From NCBI GenBank assembly GCA_041690135.1, contig JAWLHY010000003.1, forward strand, positions 864,001-928,000: 64,000 bases of DNA. The letters run 5' to 3'. The DNA is from Armatimonadota bacterium (lineage in GTDB: Bacteria > Armatimonadota > SYMT01). Position 1 is the stretch's first letter. Each line of letters opens with the position of its first letter. This document shows positions 15,987-27,290 of the stretch, piece after piece. The position numbers were made by a program, and so were the translations under genes. Below the pieces are notes generated by a model. The model did no database searches. It saw only the letters and a list, made by a program, of their open reading frames with translations, and was not told where the DNA came from.

Positions 15987-16080
15987 AGCCACTGAACCCT
16001 ACCCCTTTTCGATTGTCAGGTCCTGTTATACTCGGGGTAGTGGAATACCAGGCAGTATCTTCCGGATGAGGAGAGAAGTG

Positions 16081-16632
16081 ATGCTCACCCGGTCCAAAGC
16101 AACGATTGAAGATCTCTGCAACCTTCCCGACAACCGGAAGGCCGAACTGGTCAACGGAAAGCTCGTTTTCATCTTGCCGACGGGGGACGCACCCGGCTAT
16201 GCCGCCGATGAGATCTTCGTCTCGCTGCGGGATTATGCGAAGCGGACCGGGAGAGGGCGTGCGGTGGCGGACAACAAGGGGTTCCGCGTGCATCTGCCGC
16301 ACCGGGAGTCCTTCAGTCCGGATGCAGCTTACTACCTGGGCCCCCGGACCGGCATGCGGTTCTTCGAAGGGGCTCCCATCTTCGCGGTCGAGGCGCGCAG
16401 CGAAAACGACTACGGCCCCCAGGCCGAGTACGACCTGGCCCAGAAGCGAGCGGACTACTTCGCAGCGGGGACGCAGGTGGTCTGGGACGTTGATCTTCTG
16501 AGCGAGGACGTAGTCCGGGTTTATCGGGCAAGTGACCCCACCCGAGCGGTCATCTATCGGCGGGGTGACCTGGCGGAAGCGGAACCTGCCGTTCCCGGGT
16601 GGACCATGCCGGTAGATGATCTATTTGAATGA
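16081..16632 (+). CDS. Uma2 family (PD-(D/E)XK) endonuclease
   Basis: AELVNGKL, FSPDAAY, FAVEARSEND, KRADYFAAGTQVVWDVD, PAVPGW. Confidence 0.92.
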   Translation: MLTRSKATIEDLCNLPDNRKAELVNGKLVFILPTGDAPGYAADEIFVSLRDYAKRTGRGRAVADNKGFRVHLPHRESFSPDAAYYLGPRTGMRFFEGAPIFAVEARSENDYGPQAEYDLAQKRADYFAAGTQVVWDVDLLSEDVVRVYRASDPTRAVIYRRGDLAEAEPAVPGWTMPVDDLFE

Positions 16633-16664
16633 CCCACGTAGAGTGGTCCAGGACGATTGGTGGG

Positions 16665-17123
16665 ATGAGCGCTACCCGAATTCAGTGCTTACTCGACGCG
16701 CCCCGTGACAAGGTCTACAACGCTTTGATCGACGCGAATGCCATCCCGCGGTGGAGGGTGCCGGAGGGGATGCGCTGCCACGTCCACACGTTCGAGGCGT
16801 GGGAAGGGGGCGCCTTCCGGGTCTCCCTGACCTATGACGCACCGACCGGTACGGGCAAAACGACCGCGCACACCGACACGTACCACGGCCGCTTCGTGGA
16901 GTTGGTGCCGAACGAACGGGTGGTGGAAGTGGTGGAGTTCGAGACGGACGATCCGGCGCTTCAGGGCGAAATGACCATTACCACCACGCTTGCGGATGCG
17001 GACGGCGGCACCGACCTAACCGCCGTGCATGAGGGACTGCCGCCCGGCGTGTCACCCGCGGACAACGAGTTGGGCTGGAAAATGTCGCTCGCGAAGCTGG
17101 CGGTGCTCGTAGAGGAAGGCTAA
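16665..17123 (+). CDS. SRPBCC (AHSA1-like) domain protein
   Basis: APRDKVYNAL, GRFVELVPNERVV, GWKMSLAKL. Confidence 0.9.
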   Translation: MSATRIQCLLDAPRDKVYNALIDANAIPRWRVPEGMRCHVHTFEAWEGGAFRVSLTYDAPTGTGKTTAHTDTYHGRFVELVPNERVVEVVEFETDDPALQGEMTITTTLADADGGTDLTAVHEGLPPGVSPADNELGWKMSLAKLAVLVEEG

Positions 17124-17181
17124 AGGATTGCCGAAATGACCGTTGCGGCTGGGCGAGTGAACTCGCGCCTACAAAGGGCGA

Positions 17182-17218
17182 AGCCGACACCCCCTCGGGG
17201 CGTAAACCTCCGTCGGCT
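17182..17218. repeat. REP-like hairpin interrupted by a 19-nt palindromic micro-insertion
   Basis: AGCCGAC[ACCCCCTCGGGGCGTAAAC]CTCCGTCGGCT; removing the bracketed 19 nt gives a perfect 7-bp hairpin. Confidence 0.75.
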
Positions 17219-17346
17219 AGACACACTCGAGCGGTTATTCGTTGACAGATCCTAAGGGGCAGCCACGCACACACCAATTGTTTTGCGTCGCACACCCGGT
17301 AGGATCGTGCTACCCTTGGGAAGGCAGGCACCCGTTGGAGGGCGAT

Positions 17347-17526
17347 GTGCGTTTGATCATTGAGATCGATCAAGAAGAAGACGGGCGCTTCATTGCCGAG
17401 GTGGTCGACTTACCTGGCGTAGTTGCTTATGGCGAAACCAACGACGAAGCTCTCGCTCTCGTCCAGGCTCTCGCCCTCCGCGTGCTGGCAGAGCGGGTGG
17501 AAAACGGCGAGCCGCTTCCCCTCTGA
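17347..17526 (+). CDS. hicB: HicB-like antitoxin (short form)
   Basis: IEIDQEEDGRFIAEVVDLPGVVAYGETNDEAL; GGAGG upstream of the GTG start. Confidence 0.85.
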   Translation: MRLIIEIDQEEDGRFIAEVVDLPGVVAYGETNDEALALVQALALRVLAERVENGEPLPL

Positions 17527-17647
17527 CACCCGACGACCTCTGATTCCTCGTGAGACCTGGTAATCGCAACCCCTGACGCCACGACCGCCGACTACCATAT
17601 TGCTCCCGCAGATCGTCCGGGTCTGGCGAGCTACTGGGAGTTGGGAC

Positions 17648-18148
17648 ATGGAGGATTTCTTGCTTCCCGAAAGACGTGCGGAATTGTTGGCACGGCGCGC
17701 CGAACTGCAGGAACGGTTATGTCAGGAGGAGGCGGCTGCGAGCCTTCGGCGGAGTACTGCGCCGTTGGACGAAGCAGGTGTCGAATACGCGCTGACGGAC
17801 GAGGCGTCTGCCATATCCTGGATCCGTCACCACATCCCCATTACCACCTGGAACTGCGTCGACTGGGCAAAGGTTGATGGACATCAGTACGTTCGGGAGG
17901 ATGAAGTCCCGTCGGCAGCCGCGTGGTTGGAATCCATTGCCCACGAGATCGGGATAGAGGACCCGGAGATCATCGTCGTGTATGCGGCTGCCCACCGCCC
18001 GTGCCTGCGGATGCGGTTCGGCGAACTCGTCAGGCACGTGGAGCAAGTGATCGATTGGTCCTGGGACAACTGGATCTTCGACGAGAACGGCGACTGGCTC
18101 ATTGAGTACTTTCATCACGGAAGGTGGTGCTGGGGACGGGGCCGATGA
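17648..18148 (+). CDS. Hypothetical protein, CDI immunity-like
   Basis: WNCVDWAKV...DNWIFDENGDWLIEYFHHG resembles CdiI-type immunity proteins (recalled similarity). Confidence 0.6.
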   Translation: MEDFLLPERRAELLARRAELQERLCQEEAAASLRRSTAPLDEAGVEYALTDEASAISWIRHHIPITTWNCVDWAKVDGHQYVREDEVPSAAAWLESIAHEIGIEDPEIIVVYAAAHRPCLRMRFGELVRHVEQVIDWSWDNWIFDENGDWLIEYFHHGRWCWGRGR

Positions 18149-22358: not shown

Positions 22359-22625
22359 GGCGGGAGATTCCATCGGCAATCGCCGTCTTCGAGTACGACT
22401 CTCTGGAAGACCGCGAGGCCGATATCGCGCGCATCCTTCGCCTGCGGGAAGAAGAGGGTGGGACCGGCGAGGGGATCCTGCTGAACTGGATCTTCATGCC
22501 GCCGGGGAGCGTGCGCTGTTGAAGATGGGAGGGGTTATCACAGCTAGCACCGTTTGCCAGGGTTCAGGCAACATAATCTGGGAAGCATTCAACGCCGCAC
22601 TGGCGCTCCACAAGACCGAGGCACC

Positions 22626-22847
22626 ATGTCCGAACAAGCGACACAGATCCTGGAGCGTGCGCTCCGACTACCCCCTACCGACCGAGCAGAGGTCGTCGAG
22701 AAACTGCTTTGCAGCCTGGACCGTCCCGATGCGCACCTCGACGAGACCTGGGCGGAGGAGGTAGAGGCTAGAATTTCTGCCTATGAAGCGGGTCAGATCC
22801 AGGCGTTTGAAGCGGATGATGTTTTCGCGGAGCTAGACCACCAGTGA
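22626..22847 (+). CDS. Addiction module antitoxin (TIGR02574-like)
   Basis: ALRLPPTDRAEVVEKLLCSLD...WAEEVEARISAY; overlaps the start of the toxin gene. Confidence 0.88.
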   Translation: MSEQATQILERALRLPPTDRAEVVEKLLCSLDRPDAHLDETWAEEVEARISAYEAGQIQAFEADDVFAELDHQ

Positions 22848-23138
22848 GAATTCGCTTCCTCGCCCCGGCTCGCGAGGAGTTGCGGCAGGGCATTCTCTAC
22901 TACAACGGCCAGCGTGCCGGCCTCGGCCGGGAGTTTCGGGACGCAGTTCGTGCCGGTGTCCAGCGCATCCGCGAACACCCGCTTGCCTGGCATCCCCTGA
23001 GCGAGCACTCGGCGGCATTTGCTGCATCGCTTTCCTTACGGCATCATCTACCAGATCCGCGAGGATGAAATCCTGATTGTTGCGGTTGCGCATCTTCACC
23101 GTGAGCCAGAGTATTGGCAAGAACGGACCCAAGAGTAG
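22844..23138 (+). pseudogene. RelE/ParE family toxin, frameshifted near 23008
   Basis: MRIRFLAPAREEL...GLGREF continues in another frame as TRRHLLHRFPYGIIYQIREDEILIVAVAHLHREPEYW to TAG at 23138. Confidence 0.85.
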
Positions 23139-23843
23139 CTAGGAGCCGGCAGTTGGAACCGTTCCGGTGCCGTAGATGAAGAACCGCTCGGTGGTGCGGA
23201 CTTCCATTTGCAGACCATAGGTGGCCAGGCGGGACTGTAGCTCCTCGGGGTCGTAGTAAATCTTTACGATCCGGAATTCGCGGCCGTCGTTGAGGCGGCG
23301 GGTCGCCAGTAGCTCCTCCTCTTCGGGAAGAGGCTGGTCGAGCGGAGTACCCAGGGGCTCCCGGCGCGAATCAGCGAAGAAGAGCTTCCCACCCGGGCGC
23401 ACGGCACGCCGCAGCTTCGCCAGGAAGGGATCGAGCTGTTCCGGAGGCACGTGGGAGAGCCAGAAGCAGAAGACGGCTCCATCGTAAACCTCCTCCGGCT
23501 CCCAGTCGAAGAGATCGGCCTGGAGATACCGTACCCGCGGACTGTTGACGCGGTGCCGGTTGAGGGCCAGCATCTCCTCACTACCGTCGACCGCCGTCAC
23601 CCGGTCGGCCATCCGGCTCAGGGGCAGGGTCCAGTTTCCGGTCCCGCAGGCGATCTCCAGGACATGACCCGAGGGGCGCAGCCGTTCCAGGGCGTCATAC
23701 AGCTCCTGCCGCTCGTGGAACCACCGGGCATCCGACTCCGCGCCGCGTGCATAGCGTCCCCGCCGCTCCCACCACTCGTTGTATTCGGCGGCCCGGGCGT
23801 TGTAGTAGGCCTGCTGTTCCTGGAGATGCGTCTCGTCGATCAT
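23139..23843 (-). CDS. Class I SAM-dependent methyltransferase
   Basis: VLEIACGTGNW, AVDGSEEML, FWLSHVP. Confidence 0.92.
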   Translation of the reverse strand: MIDETHLQEQQAYYNARAAEYNEWWERRGRYARGAESDARWFHERQELYDALERLRPSGHVLEIACGTGNWTLPLSRMADRVTAVDGSEEMLALNRHRVNSPRVRYLQADLFDWEPEEVYDGAVFCFWLSHVPPEQLDPFLAKLRRAVRPGGKLFFADSRREPLGTPLDQPLPEEEELLATRRLNDGREFRIVKIYYDPEELQSRLATYGLQMEVRTTERFFIYGTGTVPTAGS

Positions 23844-23996
23844 AGAGAAATCCGATAGGACTTTAGCGCGATGGGTCCTTTCAACGATACCTCATCCGAG
23901 ACGTTGTGCCCCGACTCCGTATACCGCTTGCGTAGGGGTCACGAACGGGCGCAGAACACGGAAAACGGATCGGGCGCGAGAGAGCGCGGTGCAAGG

Positions 23997-24491
23997 ATGC
24001 CCTGGAAAGTCATCGAGCGGCGCATTGGCAAGGCGGGTCCCCTCCACCGCCGCCAGGCCCGGCAGCGGGAGTGGGACCGCCAGTACGGCGAGGGCAACTG
24101 GGAGATTGGCTATGTCCTGGACGGGGAGTTCGTGACGCAGGAGACGGCCCTGGAGTCGGTCTACTACGCCAGTTACGAGCGGCACTTCCAGGACCACCCC
24201 GCGGACCTGGAGGAGTTGATCGGGTTAGCCCGGGTACTTCACAACCCCCACGCCGAAGCCACGACGGGAGTGGATCTCCAGGTCCCGGCGATCACGGACT
24301 ACCTAGACCGCCACGGCCTCACGCTCCTGGGCCGCGAGGTGGTGGACATCGGCTCCTGGCATGGCCAGGCATCGCACCCCGTCAGCATCCGCCTGAGCCC
24401 GCTGCAGATCCGGTGCGTGGTGGACCCAAAGTTGACCCTGGAGCAGTTCTGGCAGGAGCGGAAGTGCCTGGCCGTCTGGCAGGATGAATGA
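23997..24491 (+). CDS. Hypothetical protein
   Basis: Coding-like GC3 bias; LHNPHAEATTGVDLQVPAI. Confidence 0.8.
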   Translation: MPWKVIERRIGKAGPLHRRQARQREWDRQYGEGNWEIGYVLDGEFVTQETALESVYYASYERHFQDHPADLEELIGLARVLHNPHAEATTGVDLQVPAITDYLDRHGLTLLGREVVDIGSWHGQASHPVSIRLSPLQIRCVVDPKLTLEQFWQERKCLAVWQDE

Positions 24492-24500
24492 GAAGGAATC

Positions 24501-24530
24501 AAAAAGCGCTCCGGACCGAGTCCGGAGCGC
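24501..24530 (-). terminator. Intrinsic terminator after tRNA copy 3
   Basis: GCGCTCCGGAC-TCG-GTCCGGAGCGC perfect 11-bp stem plus TTTTT. Confidence 0.85.
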
Positions 24531-24532
24531 GA

Positions 24533-24633
24533 TGCGGAAGGGGGGACTTGAACCCCCATGGATTTCTCCACACGCCCCTCAAACGCTTGCCCCCCCTCGG
24601 GGGGTAAACGTCTGCCAATTCCGCCACTTCCGC
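24533..24633 (-). pseudogene. tRNA-Leu(GAG) copy disrupted by a palindromic insertion
   Basis: Identical to 25441-25522 except TGCG is replaced by CTTGCCCCCCCTCGGGGGGTAAA (24586-24608), net +19 nt. Confidence 0.85.
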
Positions 24634-24923
24634 TATTCTGGAAACTCGGTGCACCGGGTCCCGTGCTCCCGCATGTAGGCTTCCTTCTCGGCGCGGGTGT
24701 GGTGTTTGAACCAGCTCTCCAGCCGGCGCGCGGCCGGGGCATCGGGCTGGACCTCATACCAGAGGAGCGTCACCGGCAGGTGCATCCGGGTGATCGTCGG
24801 GCCACGCCCCGCCTGGTGCTCCCGAACCCGTTCTTCCAGCCGCTGCGTGATGCCGGTGTAGTAACGCCCGTCCGCCAGCAACAGCACGTAGACGTACCAC
24901 ACGGGGGAGGGGGCTTCGCTCAT
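24633..24923 (-). CDS. Stand-alone GIY-YIG nuclease (96 aa), copy 2
   Basis: WYVYVLLLADGRYYTGITQRLEERVREHQAGRG...ARRLESWFK: both GIY-YIG tyrosine motifs plus conserved Arg, His and Glu. Confidence 0.92.
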   Translation of the reverse strand: MSEAPSPVWYVYVLLLADGRYYTGITQRLEERVREHQAGRGPTITRMHLPVTLLWYEVQPDAPAARRLESWFKHHTRAEKEAYMREHGTRCTEFPE

Positions 24924-24954
24924 CGGAACTCGAGATGAAGGGGTCGGTGGAATC

Positions 24955-24984
24955 AAAAAGCGCTCCGGACCGAGTCCGGAGCGC
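24955..24984 (-). terminator. Intrinsic terminator after tRNA copy 2
   Basis: Same 11-bp stem plus T-tract. Confidence 0.85.
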
Positions 24985-24986
24985 GA

Positions 24987-25087
24987 TGCGGAAGGGGGGA
25001 CTTGAACCCCCATGGATTTCTCCACACGCCCCTCAAACGCTTGCCCCCCCTCGGGGGGTAAACGTCTGCCAATTCCGCCACTTCCGC
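24987..25087 (-). pseudogene. tRNA-Leu(GAG) copy disrupted by a palindromic insertion
   Basis: Same sequence as 24533-24633. Confidence 0.85.
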
Positions 25088-25377
25088 TATTCTGGAAACT
25101 CGGTGCACCGGGTCCCGTGCTCCCGCATGTAGGCTTCCTTCTCGGCGCGGGTGTGGTGTTTGAACCAGCTCTCCAGCCGGCGCGCGGCCGGGGCATCGGG
25201 CTGGACCTCATACCAGAGGAGCGTCACCGGCAGGTGCATCCGGGTGATCGTCGGGCCACGCCCCGCCTGGTGCTCCCGAACCCGTTCTTCCAGCCGCTGC
25301 GTGATGCCGGTGTAGTAACGCCCGTCCGCCAGCAACAGCACGTAGACGTACCACACGGGGGAGGGGGCTTCGCTCAT
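25087..25377 (-). CDS. Stand-alone GIY-YIG nuclease (96 aa), copy 1
   Basis: Same protein as 24633-24923; its TAG stop shares the G with nucleotide 1 of the tRNA copy. Confidence 0.92.
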   Translation of the reverse strand: MSEAPSPVWYVYVLLLADGRYYTGITQRLEERVREHQAGRGPTITRMHLPVTLLWYEVQPDAPAARRLESWFKHHTRAEKEAYMREHGTRCTEFPE

Positions 25378-25408
25378 CGGAACTCGAGATGAAGGGGTCG
25401 GTGGAATC

Positions 25409-25438
25409 AAAAAGCGCTCCGGACCGAGTCCGGAGCGC
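25409..25438 (-). terminator. Intrinsic terminator of tRNA-Leu
   Basis: 11-bp stem plus TTTTT, 2 nt after the tRNA discriminator base. Confidence 0.85.
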
Positions 25439-25440
25439 GA

Positions 25441-25522
25441 TGCGGAAGGGGGGACTTGAACCCCCATGGATTTCTCCACACGCCCCTCAAACGTGCGCGT
25501 CTGCCAATTCCGCCACTTCCGC
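25441..25522 (-). tRNA. tRNA-Leu(GAG), intact, CCA not encoded
   Basis: GCGGAAG acceptor stem, D-arm GCGGAATTGGCAGACGC, anticodon arm CACGT-TTGAGGG-GCGTG, long variable arm, GGGGGTTCAAGTCCCCC T-arm. Confidence 0.97.
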
Positions 25523-25539
25523 AGGGGGTTGGTGAAGTG

Positions 25540-25568
25540 ATTGTAGCAGGCCGCCCTGCCCTCGTCAA
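25540..25568 (-). promoter_or_regulatory. Sigma70-type promoter of tRNA-Leu
   Basis: TTGACG-17 nt-TACAAT with TG extension on the minus strand. Confidence 0.8.
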
Positions 25569-25619
25569 TAGGGTTTCGCAAGCTCTTCCGCGGCCGTCCA
25601 GCGGCGCGGACTCCCCGCC

Positions 25620-26006
25620 TTATTCCACCTTCGTGGCGATCCACCAGGTGGTGCCGCCCGCGTCCTTCACGCCGCCGCGTTTGTCCGCGTCCGCCTTCTT
25701 CACAGGTTCCTGGACCGAGGTCGCGCCCGCTTCCAGAGCGCGTTGGTAGGTGGTGTCCACTTCGGGGACGTAGATGTGGACGTGTGCCGGTAGCGCGGGC
25801 CAGCCTTCGGCGCTGTCGGCGATCATCACCACCGTGTCGTCGAGGCGGACCTCCGCGTGCATGATCCTTCCGGCATCGTCGGGAAAGCGGCGGATCTCGA
25901 CCGCGTCGAACACGCGGATCAGAAAGTCGATCGTGGCCGCGGCATCCTTCACGATCAGGTACGGGGACACGGTGTTGTAGGTGTCGGGTTTGTAAGGGGG
26001 TTTCAT
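25620..26006 (-). CDS. VOC/glyoxalase (PhnB-like) protein
   Basis: VSPYLIVKDAAATIDFL, IMHAEV, GGVKDAGGTTWWIAT. Confidence 0.92.
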   Translation of the reverse strand: MKPPYKPDTYNTVSPYLIVKDAAATIDFLIRVFDAVEIRRFPDDAGRIMHAEVRLDDTVVMIADSAEGWPALPAHVHIYVPEVDTTYQRALEAGATSVQEPVKKADADKRGGVKDAGGTTWWIATKVE

Positions 26007-26135
26007 TAGCCCATCCAACGCAAGGCAAAGCACGACGTTAGCCGGTCGCTACAGATTTTCGGCAATCCAGGCGGGAATGCCCGCATCCGGATCTTGAAGC
26101 ACCCCTTCCGGGCGGGGATAACTGGCTTCCTCGTC

Positions 26136-27290
26136 TTAGCTTGGATCGTTCTCCGCCGATACCACGCGTTCTCCCACGAAGAGGGTAGCGGGTTCGAGAC
26201 CCGGCTCACGGATCATGAGATCGATGCCGGGATAGAGTGCAAACGGCGTGACGGGCTGTGCCGGGTCCGGCGCCTCGATGAGTTCGCGGTCGACATCTTC
26301 GACCTCCGGTATGCTCGGTGCTAACCCTGCCCGCCGAGCCGTCCGTATTACGGCGATCGCGGGGATATTTAGAAACGGAAGTTGACACCCAACCCATACG
26401 GCGAGATCGGTGCGAGGCCAGGTTTCCAAGAGACCGACGACCCCTTGATCGATCAGGCGGACATCGCCGCGCGCGATCCCGAGGAACGCGTTGCGCACCG
26501 CGGCATCGAATTTCGTCCGAGGAGCATAACCCAACTCACTGGCCGGAATTTCAGATCCGAGAATCCAGGAGCGGAGAGTATTCCATGAACTGCGCGTGGA
26601 AGGAGGGAGCCCATGCCCCGTGAACTCCATCCGAGCCCAGAGCGCCAGGTGTCTTTTGTTGCCGACGAGCAAGCCGGTGAAGACGTGGTCGAAGTACCCG
26701 TAGTGGTCGGAAAGGCGGATCAACTCGGCCTCGAGGCAACTTGAGGCCAGTAGAGAGCTCAGCAGATCCTCCGCGGATGCGCCGAAGAGCCTGCCCAGAA
26801 TGGGCAGTACTTGAAGGGAGGTACTCTGCCCGCGATACACGGCGTTCAGGAAGTAAGCCTTTGGCGTGTACCTCATATAGGGTGAGGACGGGTGCAGATC
26901 TCTCGACCAGTGAGAACCCTCCGGGAAGACACCCAGACAGGGTCCGGATAGCTTCAATAGACGCTCTGCCTCGTTCGCCAGCGTGACGGTAGACGATTGG
27001 ACGGCCTGTCGCAGCTTGATCCGCCGGGATGGGGAATACCTGGGCCAACTCGCCGCGCGAATGTTCCGAAGTGGCGGCAACGGCACTCCGAATTCTAACT
27101 CGCTGCAAAGTTTGCTGAGTCGATGGAGACCGTCGTCCGTCTCCGGAAGCGAGAGGATGCCGACACCCCTCTGCTTACTCTCATCCGCATACTGAAGCAA
27201 CCGAGCGATCCGCAGTGCAAGCCGCTGGCGGAATTGCGGAACAAGCGAGCCGTCCAGAATGCGGTGCTCAACCGGGTTCGGAGTTGTCAT
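26136..27290 (-). CDS. Hypothetical protein, C-terminus possibly Imm49-like
   Basis: Long ORF coupled to the upstream ankyrin gene (ATGA overlap), lower GC; GIARGD...FLNIPAIAVIRTARRAGL. Confidence 0.6.
   Translation of the reverse strand: MTTPNPVEHRILDGSLVPQFRQRLALRIARLLQYADESKQRGVGILSLPETDDGLHRLSKLCSELEFGVPLPPLRNIRAASWPRYSPSRRIKLRQAVQSSTVTLANEAERLLKLSGPCLGVFPEGSHWSRDLHPSSPYMRYTPKAYFLNAVYRGQSTSLQVLPILGRLFGASAEDLLSSLLASSCLEAELIRLSDHYGYFDHVFTGLLVGNKRHLALWARMEFTGHGLPPSTRSSWNTLRSWILGSEIPASELGYAPRTKFDAAVRNAFLGIARGDVRLIDQGVVGLLETWPRTDLAVWVGCQLPFLNIPAIAVIRTARRAGLAPSIPEVEDVDRELIEAPDPAQPVTPFALYPGIDLMIREPGLEPATLFVGERVVSAENDPS

Follow-up and report, generated by a model that had tools for sequence, protein, structure and literature searches.

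The 64,000-nucleotide (nt) stretch analysed here, referred to as the window, lies on contig JAWLHY010000003.1 of an Armatimonadota genome and carries a doubled unit in which the gene for a small nuclease of the GIY-YIG family is joined to a defective copy of the transfer RNA (tRNA) gene behind which it sits. The genome comprises 9.1 Mb in 25 contigs at 65% G+C, and the contig with the locus is 1.01 Mb long. An intact tRNA-Leu(GAG) gene opens the series and is followed by the two units, each consisting of a GIY-YIG open reading frame (ORF) of 96 amino acids (aa), a full-length defective tRNA-Leu copy, here called tRNA*, and a terminator (Table 1). The two units are 100% identical, and Tandem Repeats Finder reports a 454-bp period with 2.2 copies, 100% matches and no indels over positions 24495-25493. 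The three terminators are also identical to one another, each with an 11-bp stem. The stop codon of the nuclease gene is TAG, and its G is nucleotide 1 of tRNA*. No further copy of the 454-bp unit was found elsewhere in the genome, which contains no nuclease gene of this kind besides these two.

Table 1. Features of the tRNA-Leu(GAG) locus, in the order of transcription. Positions are those of the window.
Feature	Position	Strand	Remarks
Sigma-70-like promoter, TTGACG-17-TACAAT	25540..25568	-	10 of 12 matches; sole promoter-like site in 24200-25900; predicted to drive the tRNA-Leu transcription unit
Intact tRNA-Leu(GAG)	25441..25522 (Rfam); 25439-25523 (ARAGORN)	-	Rfam 50.2 bits
Intrinsic terminator 1	25414..25438	-	11-bp stem followed by a T tract; the GATTCC beyond it ends at 25403
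GIY-YIG nuclease gene, copy 1	25087..25377	-	single-domain product of 96 aa; lacks its own promoter
tRNA*, copy 1	24987..25087	-	full-length defective tRNA-Leu copy, 101 nt; Rfam 33.6 bits
Hairpin element, copy 1	25040..25062	-	23 nt; replaces tRNA nt 26-29; member of the TTTA-hairpin repeat family
Terminator 2	24960..24984	-	11-bp stem
GIY-YIG nuclease gene, copy 2	24633..24923	-	identical to copy 1
tRNA*, copy 2	24533..24633	-	101 nt
Hairpin element, copy 2	24586..24608	-	23 nt
Terminator 3 and right repeat edge	24495..24530	-	terminator at 24530-24506; edge reads …TTTTTGATTCC; unique DNA beyond

This arrangement bears out a sequence-only reading of the window, which had placed the promoter, the intact tRNA-Leu, its terminator and two nuclease/tRNA*/terminator units in this order on the minus strand, with an exact 454-bp period and with the nuclease stop codon overlapping the first nucleotide of tRNA*. 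The same reading had described tRNA* as a full-length copy carrying a palindrome at the junction of the D arm and the anticodon arm. The position is correct, but the palindrome replaces 4 nt and is not a pure insertion. The lack of an integrase or transposase nearby was likewise confirmed: among 30 ORFs lying within about 12 kb of the locus, Pfam revealed no recombinase or transposase, and Phage_integrase (seven matches in the genome) and Y1_Tnp (nine matches) have none on the locus contig, while Resolvase has no match genome-wide.

The nuclease gene sits inside the tRNA-Leu(GAG) transcription unit, between the working tRNA and tRNA*. A promoter search of 24200-25900 found no promoter-like site between the terminator and the nuclease start codon. 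With no such site to start from, expression of the gene most likely depends on read-through at the tRNA terminator.

tRNA* Is a Disrupted Copy of tRNA-Leu(GAG)

Base-by-base comparison with the intact gene reveals that CGCA, nt 26-29 of the tRNA, has been exchanged in tRNA* for the 23-nt sequence TTTA-CCCCCC-GAG-GGGGGG-CAAG. The first 25 nt, on the 5' side of this hairpin, are identical in the two genes, as are 91 nt on its 3' side, which begin in the anticodon stem and reach past the terminator to the end of GATTCC. The CGCA of the intact gene forms the 4-nt loop of a small palindrome native to that gene, CAGACG/CGTTTG (25494-25503), so the element caps and lengthens a hairpin that was already there. 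The predicted DNA fold energy changes from -2.5 kcal/mol in the intact gene to -10 kcal/mol with the hairpin element.

tRNA* scores above the Rfam gathering score for tRNA (33.6 against 29 bits), yet its anticodon arm is left unaligned, and ARAGORN makes no tRNA call on it. In the predicted RNA fold the acceptor, variable and T arms are retained, and the D and anticodon arms become one long hairpin that absorbs part of the anticodon loop. The missing ARAGORN call, the skipped anticodon arm and the merged arms of the predicted fold indicate that tRNA* does not decode; in that fold it lacks the cloverleaf with an anticodon stem-loop that a functional tRNA has. Annotators should treat such tRNA-like sequences as nuclease-linked pseudogenes and not as extra tRNAs.

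The intact gene is the single 85-nt tRNA-Leu(GAG) that ARAGORN calls in the whole genome; a second "Leu(gag)" call is a 76-nt gene within a cluster of short tRNAs on a different contig. Because the genome has no other gene of its kind, the promoter-proximal copy is probably kept intact by selection.

The Nuclease Is a Minimal GIY-YIG Protein

The only Pfam domain in the 96-aa product is PF01541 (GIY-YIG), which spans residues 8-79 (E = 1.2e-12; 48.3 bits, with the cut-off at 22.6). Residues Y11, Y21, G23, R31, H35 and E68 are invariant among seven relatives and also among the three closest, and their catalytic roles are presumed from those in the family. The C-terminus lies 16 residues past the catalytic domain, and the protein lacks a C-terminal DNA-binding domain of the Seg type.

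The best matches among solved structures are the UPF0213 proteins 1ywl (E = 6e-10) and 1zg2 (E = 2e-9), over about 78 residues. UPF0213 structures belong to the bacterial Slx1-like lineage, apart from the homing endonucleases and UvrC (Dunin-Horkawicz et al., PMC1564403). By sequence, the nuclease is therefore classed as a minimal GIY-YIG protein of the UPF0213 or Slx1-like type. Both solved relatives, EF2693 (1ywl) and BH0048 (1zg2), have the same minimal single-domain build. In contrast to the nuclease described here, no function, repeat association or tRNA linkage is given for them in the part of PMC1564403 available to us.

A Hairpin Repeat Family Specific to This Genome

The hairpin in tRNA* belongs to a dispersed repeat family. 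The pattern TTTACCMCCCNNNGGGKGG has 43 copies in the genome, including the two in tRNA*, and the reversed pattern, used as a control, has none. Six genomes of the same taxonomic family contain no copy, and 150 other sampled genomes of the phylum contain one in all; the hairpin family is specific to this genome. Sites at which TTTA precedes a perfect stem of at least 6 bp number 91 in the genome, against 18-36 for the control prefixes AAAT, ATTT and TAAA, and 66 of the 91 have stems of the CCCCCC, CCACCC or GCCCCC type. In a ten-copy subfamily, 20 of 22 positions are the same as in the tRNA* element, and both differences are compensatory.

Two other kinds of repeat were observed in the same genome. 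At 23 sites (for example C3:530077, C14:167453 and C11:210195, as contig and position) a conserved hairpin, GGTTTACGCCCCGAGGGGGTGC, lies inside outer stems that vary in sequence yet remain paired, and more stem-loops follow it; one copy is about 200 nt upstream of the best match to a Y1 transposase. This structure may be an end of the IS200/IS605 type or a guide-RNA scaffold. An Rfam search of five loci with related hairpins returned only sub-threshold microRNA noise. Many further sites (for example C4:211720-211820 and C1:1551432) have runs of the heptamer CCTTCAA, or of GCCYGAA or GCCCAAT, interspersed with CCCCC-GAG-GGGGG hairpins, and these look like an intergenic repeat system.

Bare Sites and a Diverged Relative of the Cassette

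The sequence-only reading had proposed a search for empty-site relatives with a single tRNA and terminator, and such sites are present in all six genomes of the family. Each has one tRNA-Leu(GAG), 92-99% identical to that of the locus, with its own terminator and no cassette behind it. The glyoxalase-tRNA neighbourhood of the locus is shared by none of the six.

A pattern for tRNA-Leu(GAG) with an insert of 8-38 nt at the hairpin position was found in one of 401 genomes of the phylum, the genome described here. In metagenome contigs the pattern matched seven loci, one of which, L067, is relevant. The other six, all without a GIY-YIG gene, were rejected. Three of them matched by chance; in the remaining three (L066, L068 and L072) a 16-nt tRNA fragment stands directly before an intact tRNA-Leu(GAG) and is identical to the D-arm region of another type of tRNA-Leu(GAG).

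L067 is a contig of 1238 bp on which a promoter, an intact tRNA-Leu(GAG), a terminator, a GIY-YIG gene of 91 aa, a tRNA* and a terminator ending in TTTTTGATTC follow one another. The encoded nuclease is 49% identical to that of the locus. The hairpin occupies the same position in the tRNA, and its flanks, TTTA…GGCAAGC, are identical; the stem-loop differs at 4 of 15 positions and still forms a hairpin. The L067 tRNA* has lost its 5' acceptor strand, bears a further hairpin of this type in reverse orientation in its T stem, and has no match in Rfam. From its sequence, the tRNA copy in this lineage is decaying and the hairpin site is retained. Only 15 nt separate the terminator stem from the nuclease start codon, too few for a promoter, and the gene would therefore have to be read through from the tRNA promoter. 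L067 also carries a radical-SAM gene, 74% identical to a copy in the genome described here. That copy is on a different contig from the locus, and the gene neighbourhoods therefore differ; the radical-SAM-tRNA neighbourhood is common only to genome G004 and L067.

Further pieces of the cassette were recovered as Logan contigs from four soil and root metagenome runs. These contigs are short and of low depth, and one of the runs may be the source sample; they indicate presence, not frequency. One matches exactly over 151 nt that span the 3' end of the nuclease gene and the hairpin-bearing tRNA*. A contig of 197 nt has 18 differences, and all 14 that are listed fall in the nuclease part, none in tRNA* or the hairpin. 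Another is about 90% identical over the tRNA end, the terminator and the nuclease start. A contig of 186 nt has the 3' part of the tRNA, 57 nt, and then tRNA*, with no nuclease gene between them, and tRNA* and the gene can therefore occur apart.

When metagenome contigs were scanned with the two nearest proteins, 599 pattern matches resulted, none of which was confirmed, and a scan of viral contigs found no relatives of the nuclease. A scan of genome contigs found six distant relatives (38-49% identical), none of them near a tRNA and none with flanking repeats.

The claim that the unit is a compact recombinase-free element tied to tRNA-Leu(GAG), and not ordinary chromosome, is supported by the same layout in L067 in another gene neighbourhood, by the six bare relatives, by the metagenome pieces and by kindred small GIY-YIG genes behind other tRNAs with duplicated tRNA segments.

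Small GIY-YIG Genes Recur Behind tRNA Genes

A profile built from the seven relatives identifies genes of this kind in 75 of 251 genomes of the phylum. Fifty-three loci were fetched and 12 duplicates dropped, leaving 41 for examination, 35 from this phylum and six from other phyla. A tRNA or transfer-messenger RNA (tmRNA) gene lies within 500 nt in ten of the 41, nine times on the same strand and upstream. Since four of the ten are tRNA-Thr loci from a single family, these count as one event. The proportion is far above the approximately 1% expected from a rough estimate of the share of a genome that is near tRNA genes. Direct repeats of at least 30 nt join the two flanks in 15 of the 41 loci, against none of 199 random 300-bp intervals of the genome described here. 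The loci distant from tRNAs sit in arrays of palindromic repeats. Rfam, at its gathering score, has no match in 20 homologous loci.

Two of the linked arrangements resemble the locus. In one genome the ATG of the nuclease gene overlaps the CCA end of a tRNA-Pro, its stop codon lies in the D arm of a tRNA-like copy that is not called as a tRNA, and the period is 300 bp. At four tRNA-Thr(TGT) loci (L083, L084, L086 and L095, from four genomes of one family in this phylum) an intact tRNA is followed by a cassette of about 400 bp, with a terminator hairpin, the palindrome GTGACCCCGAGCGAAGTCGAGGGGCCA and a small GIY-YIG gene in this order. A 20-22-nt copy of the tRNA 3' end is found at or just past the end of the gene; it resembles an attachment site, and no recombinase accompanies it.

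The sequence-only reading had suggested searching for short GIY-YIG genes beside tRNA copies with palindromic inserts. L067 is such a case, and some of the tRNA- and tmRNA-linked loci have duplicated tRNA pieces. No description of a chromosomal mini GIY-YIG cassette nested at tRNA genes was found in the literature searched, supplements aside. As far as found, the locus is a member of a recurrent, apparently undescribed, tRNA-linked form of the design that pairs a small GIY-YIG nuclease with a hairpin repeat.

In draft genomes, many of the small GIY-YIG homologues are within a few hundred bases of a contig end, which is expected if flanking repeats break assemblies.

Comparison with Known Systems

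Pairs of a single-domain GIY-YIG nuclease and a hairpin repeat were first described in 2025, and their biological role is unclear (PMC11893778). The Ssn nucleases, such as SsnA of Neisseria meningitidis, are single-domain GIY-YIG proteins of 94 aa (Chenal et al. 2025, PMC11893778). They bind their hairpin repeat, called NTS or SRM, only as single-stranded DNA and cut it a few nucleotides upstream. The repeats flank the nuclease gene in most genomes and number in the hundreds, and the authors liken them to REP elements and their transposases (PMC11893778).

The resemblance of the locus to this design is strong, as a likeness of build and of hairpin pairing and not as an assignment to cd10448. 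Both nucleases are single-domain GIY-YIG proteins of about 94-96 aa with no DNA-binding domain, and each has, next to its gene and dispersed over the same genome, a short GC-rich hairpin repeat whose 5' flank is conserved. The hairpin of the locus is of a different sequence family (TTTA-CCCCCC-NNN-GGGGGG), however, and its copies are far fewer than the hundreds of Ssn genomes. It also lies inside a duplicated tRNA, with the gene in a tRNA transcription unit, whereas the word "tRNA" is absent from PMC11893778.

A second comparison is with SegB, a free-standing GIY-YIG homing endonuclease of the tRNA cluster of phages T4 and T6, which makes cuts within tRNA genes and causes tRNA-plus-segB units to be amplified in tandem through recombination (PMC13096335). 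Both loci have a GIY-YIG gene beside tRNA genes, and in both the tRNA-plus-nuclease units are amplified in tandem by homologous recombination, presumably so for the locus described here. SegB is phage-borne and cuts double-stranded DNA, whereas the gene at the locus is chromosomal, encodes the catalytic domain only, and accompanies an amplified tRNA copy that is defective. SegB is also more than twice as long as the nuclease of the locus and has a DNA-binding part.

In the REP/RAYT and IS200/IS605 systems a small nuclease-type gene is accompanied by short, dispersed intergenic hairpin repeats that are recognised as single strands. Dispersed hairpin repeats are common to these systems and the locus, but their enzyme is an HUH tyrosine transposase and that of the locus a GIY-YIG hydrolase. 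A REP/RAYT or IS200/IS605 reading of the hairpins was rejected: the Y1 genes are on other contigs and are not bracketed by TTTA-hairpins. Eight of the nine Y1 transposase matches have no TTTA-hairpin within 1.2 kb, and the other has a related hairpin about 200 nt upstream.

Islands and prophages that target tRNA genes encode a tyrosine or serine recombinase and duplicate part of the tRNA 3' end. As in such islands, the insert at the locus lies directly 3' of a tRNA that remains intact, and tRNA sequence is duplicated at its far end. The locus differs in having no recombinase, in its size (454 bp against kilobases) and in the duplication of the whole tRNA with its terminator.

Origin of the Doubled Unit

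On balance, these features favour the reading that the locus is a tRNA-nested cassette of nuclease and hairpin that was doubled by unequal recombination between its flanking 25 + 91-bp repeats. The cassette looks like a selfish mini-element of a partly known kind. By analogy with the Ssn nucleases, the 23-nt hairpin would be the recognition site of the nuclease in single-stranded DNA, and the genome-wide hairpin family also points to an action of the nuclease on the hairpin. Around the gene, the tRNA and tRNA*, each with its terminator, form direct repeats of 25 and 91 bp. The 91-bp block is much the longer of the two and the probable mediator; unequal homologous recombination within it would produce an exact 454-bp duplication in the order intact tRNA, unit, unit, and could equally remove the cassette scarlessly. 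Such recombination may be promoted by hairpin nicks that arise in replication or transcription, in the way that SegB promotes it in phage.

Several observations weigh against this reading. The hairpin is present on one side only of the first copy of the nuclease gene, and the link between nuclease and hairpin family is known from one genome and one 1.2-kb contig. The published SRM motif has no match in 23401-26600, is not enriched on contig C3 (9 matches, against 11-18 in five simulations) and occurs in 3 of the 53 related loci. NCBIfam has no family for the nuclease, whose best solved relatives carry the UPF0213 label. Most homologous loci, 31 of the 41, are away from tRNA or tmRNA genes, and the altered arm of the copy linked to tRNA-Pro occurs once in its genome and is not a repeat. 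The nine Y1 transposase matches could have spread the hairpins, though all but one lack a hairpin nearby. A hydrolytic GIY-YIG nuclease is unable to join DNA itself, and any movement of the cassette would need another route. Finally, public read runs contain at most 0.12 of the sampled words, and the count of two units rests on the assembly.

Some of these observations would also fit a neutral history, in which the tRNA and its terminator were duplicated in tandem long ago, the second copy began to decay and received an unrelated dispersed palindrome, and a housekeeping repair gene of the UPF0213 type came to lie between the two by chance; the doubling would then be a chance unequal crossover or an artefact of the assembly that supplies the two-copy count. 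The tRNA* of L067 is clearly decaying, with its lost 5' acceptor strand, its second hairpin and its failure to match Rfam, and the many homologues away from tRNA and tmRNA genes fit such a history as well. A neutral origin is nonetheless unlikely. The gene exactly fills the gap from terminator to tRNA*, and an overlap of its stop codon with the tRNA copy recurs at the locus, in L067 and at tRNA-Pro. Some lineages of the family have the unit and six others do not, and adjacency to tRNA or tmRNA genes is far more frequent than expected. The position and flanks of the hairpin have been conserved while the nuclease diverged to 49% identity, and the hairpin family co-occurs with the gene, being plentiful in this genome and almost absent from the others sampled.

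A bolder proposal would make the unit an autonomous single-strand mobile element, among the smallest known. The nuclease would recognise the TTTA-hairpin as a single strand and, by cutting upstream of two direct hairpins, free a strand of unit length, which host repair would insert into the loops of extruded hairpins such as the tRNA-Leu palindrome. The same enzyme would have seeded the 43 solo hairpins, and the tRNA copy would be carried so that the element could land in a tRNA gene, and be transcribed from it, without killing it. We regard this proposal as speculative and rather unlikely to hold.

The gene of the second unit is flanked by two direct hairpins 454 nt apart, and given the behaviour of the Ssn enzymes (PMC11893778), cutting upstream of each could therefore free a single strand of unit length. 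This fits the model put forward in the sequence-only reading, that a 454-bp circle of tRNA* with its hairpin, terminator and nuclease gene repeatedly integrates into tRNA-Leu by crossover 3' of the hairpin, with nuclease cutting of the tRNA gene or the hairpin as the trigger. The order intact tRNA, unit, unit is exactly as this model expects, and the copy of the tRNA 3' end in the tRNA-Thr cassettes resembles site-specific insertion. The same A-B-A*-B-A* product, however, would result from unequal recombination between the 91-bp repeats without any circle, and the intact-first order is also what selection would enforce. No circle was seen, nor any transition from an empty to a filled site. GIY-YIG enzymes hydrolyse DNA without strand transfer, a circle of 454 bp would lack any means of replication or of transfer between cells, and the 186-nt metagenome contig has tRNA* apart from the nuclease gene. 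These points make repeated integration of a circle improbable.

Homing in the manner of SegB, by a double-strand break in the intact tRNA-Leu of cassette-free genomes, copying during repair and immunity through a hairpin that destroys the target site, is the least credible origin: it has the precedent of an enzyme that cuts in tRNA genes, sits in a tRNA cluster and amplifies its own units (PMC13096335), and it fits presence and absence among relatives, but the protein is a bare 96-aa catalytic domain with no DNA-binding domain, its nearest solved relatives are Slx1-like and separated from the homing-endonuclease and UvrC lineage (PMC1564403), the intact tRNA gene in the same cell is an unprotected target, and the viral contigs scanned contain no relatives.

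The locus joins a nuclease and a hairpin closely to a tRNA gene, with the hairpin in a duplicated tRNA, a probably borrowed tRNA promoter and a recent tandem doubling. Should the nuclease act on the hairpin, the locus would offer a natural system for studying how such enzymes spread repeats, how they might stimulate local amplification as SegB does in phage, and why their genes often lie behind tRNA and tmRNA genes.

Genomic Surroundings

Ordinary genes and accessory ones both occur within about 12 kb of the locus; they include a methyltransferase, a glyoxalase, ankyrin-repeat proteins, an antitoxin and Uma2. The accessory genes suggest, from their sequences, that this is a variable region of the genome. 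At 16066-18148 and 22554-23068 of the window are a putative restriction endonuclease of the Uma2 family, a CdiI-like immunity protein and an antitoxin-like gene of the Unstab_antitox type, the last followed by a small overlapping ORF.

Outside the window, at C4:52816-53509, ARAGORN calls a cluster of three short "tRNA-Leu" genes of 74-76 nt, with the anticodons gag, tag and taa. Bacterial tRNA-Leu genes normally have a long variable arm. The cluster may be a tRNA array of a mobile element or phage.

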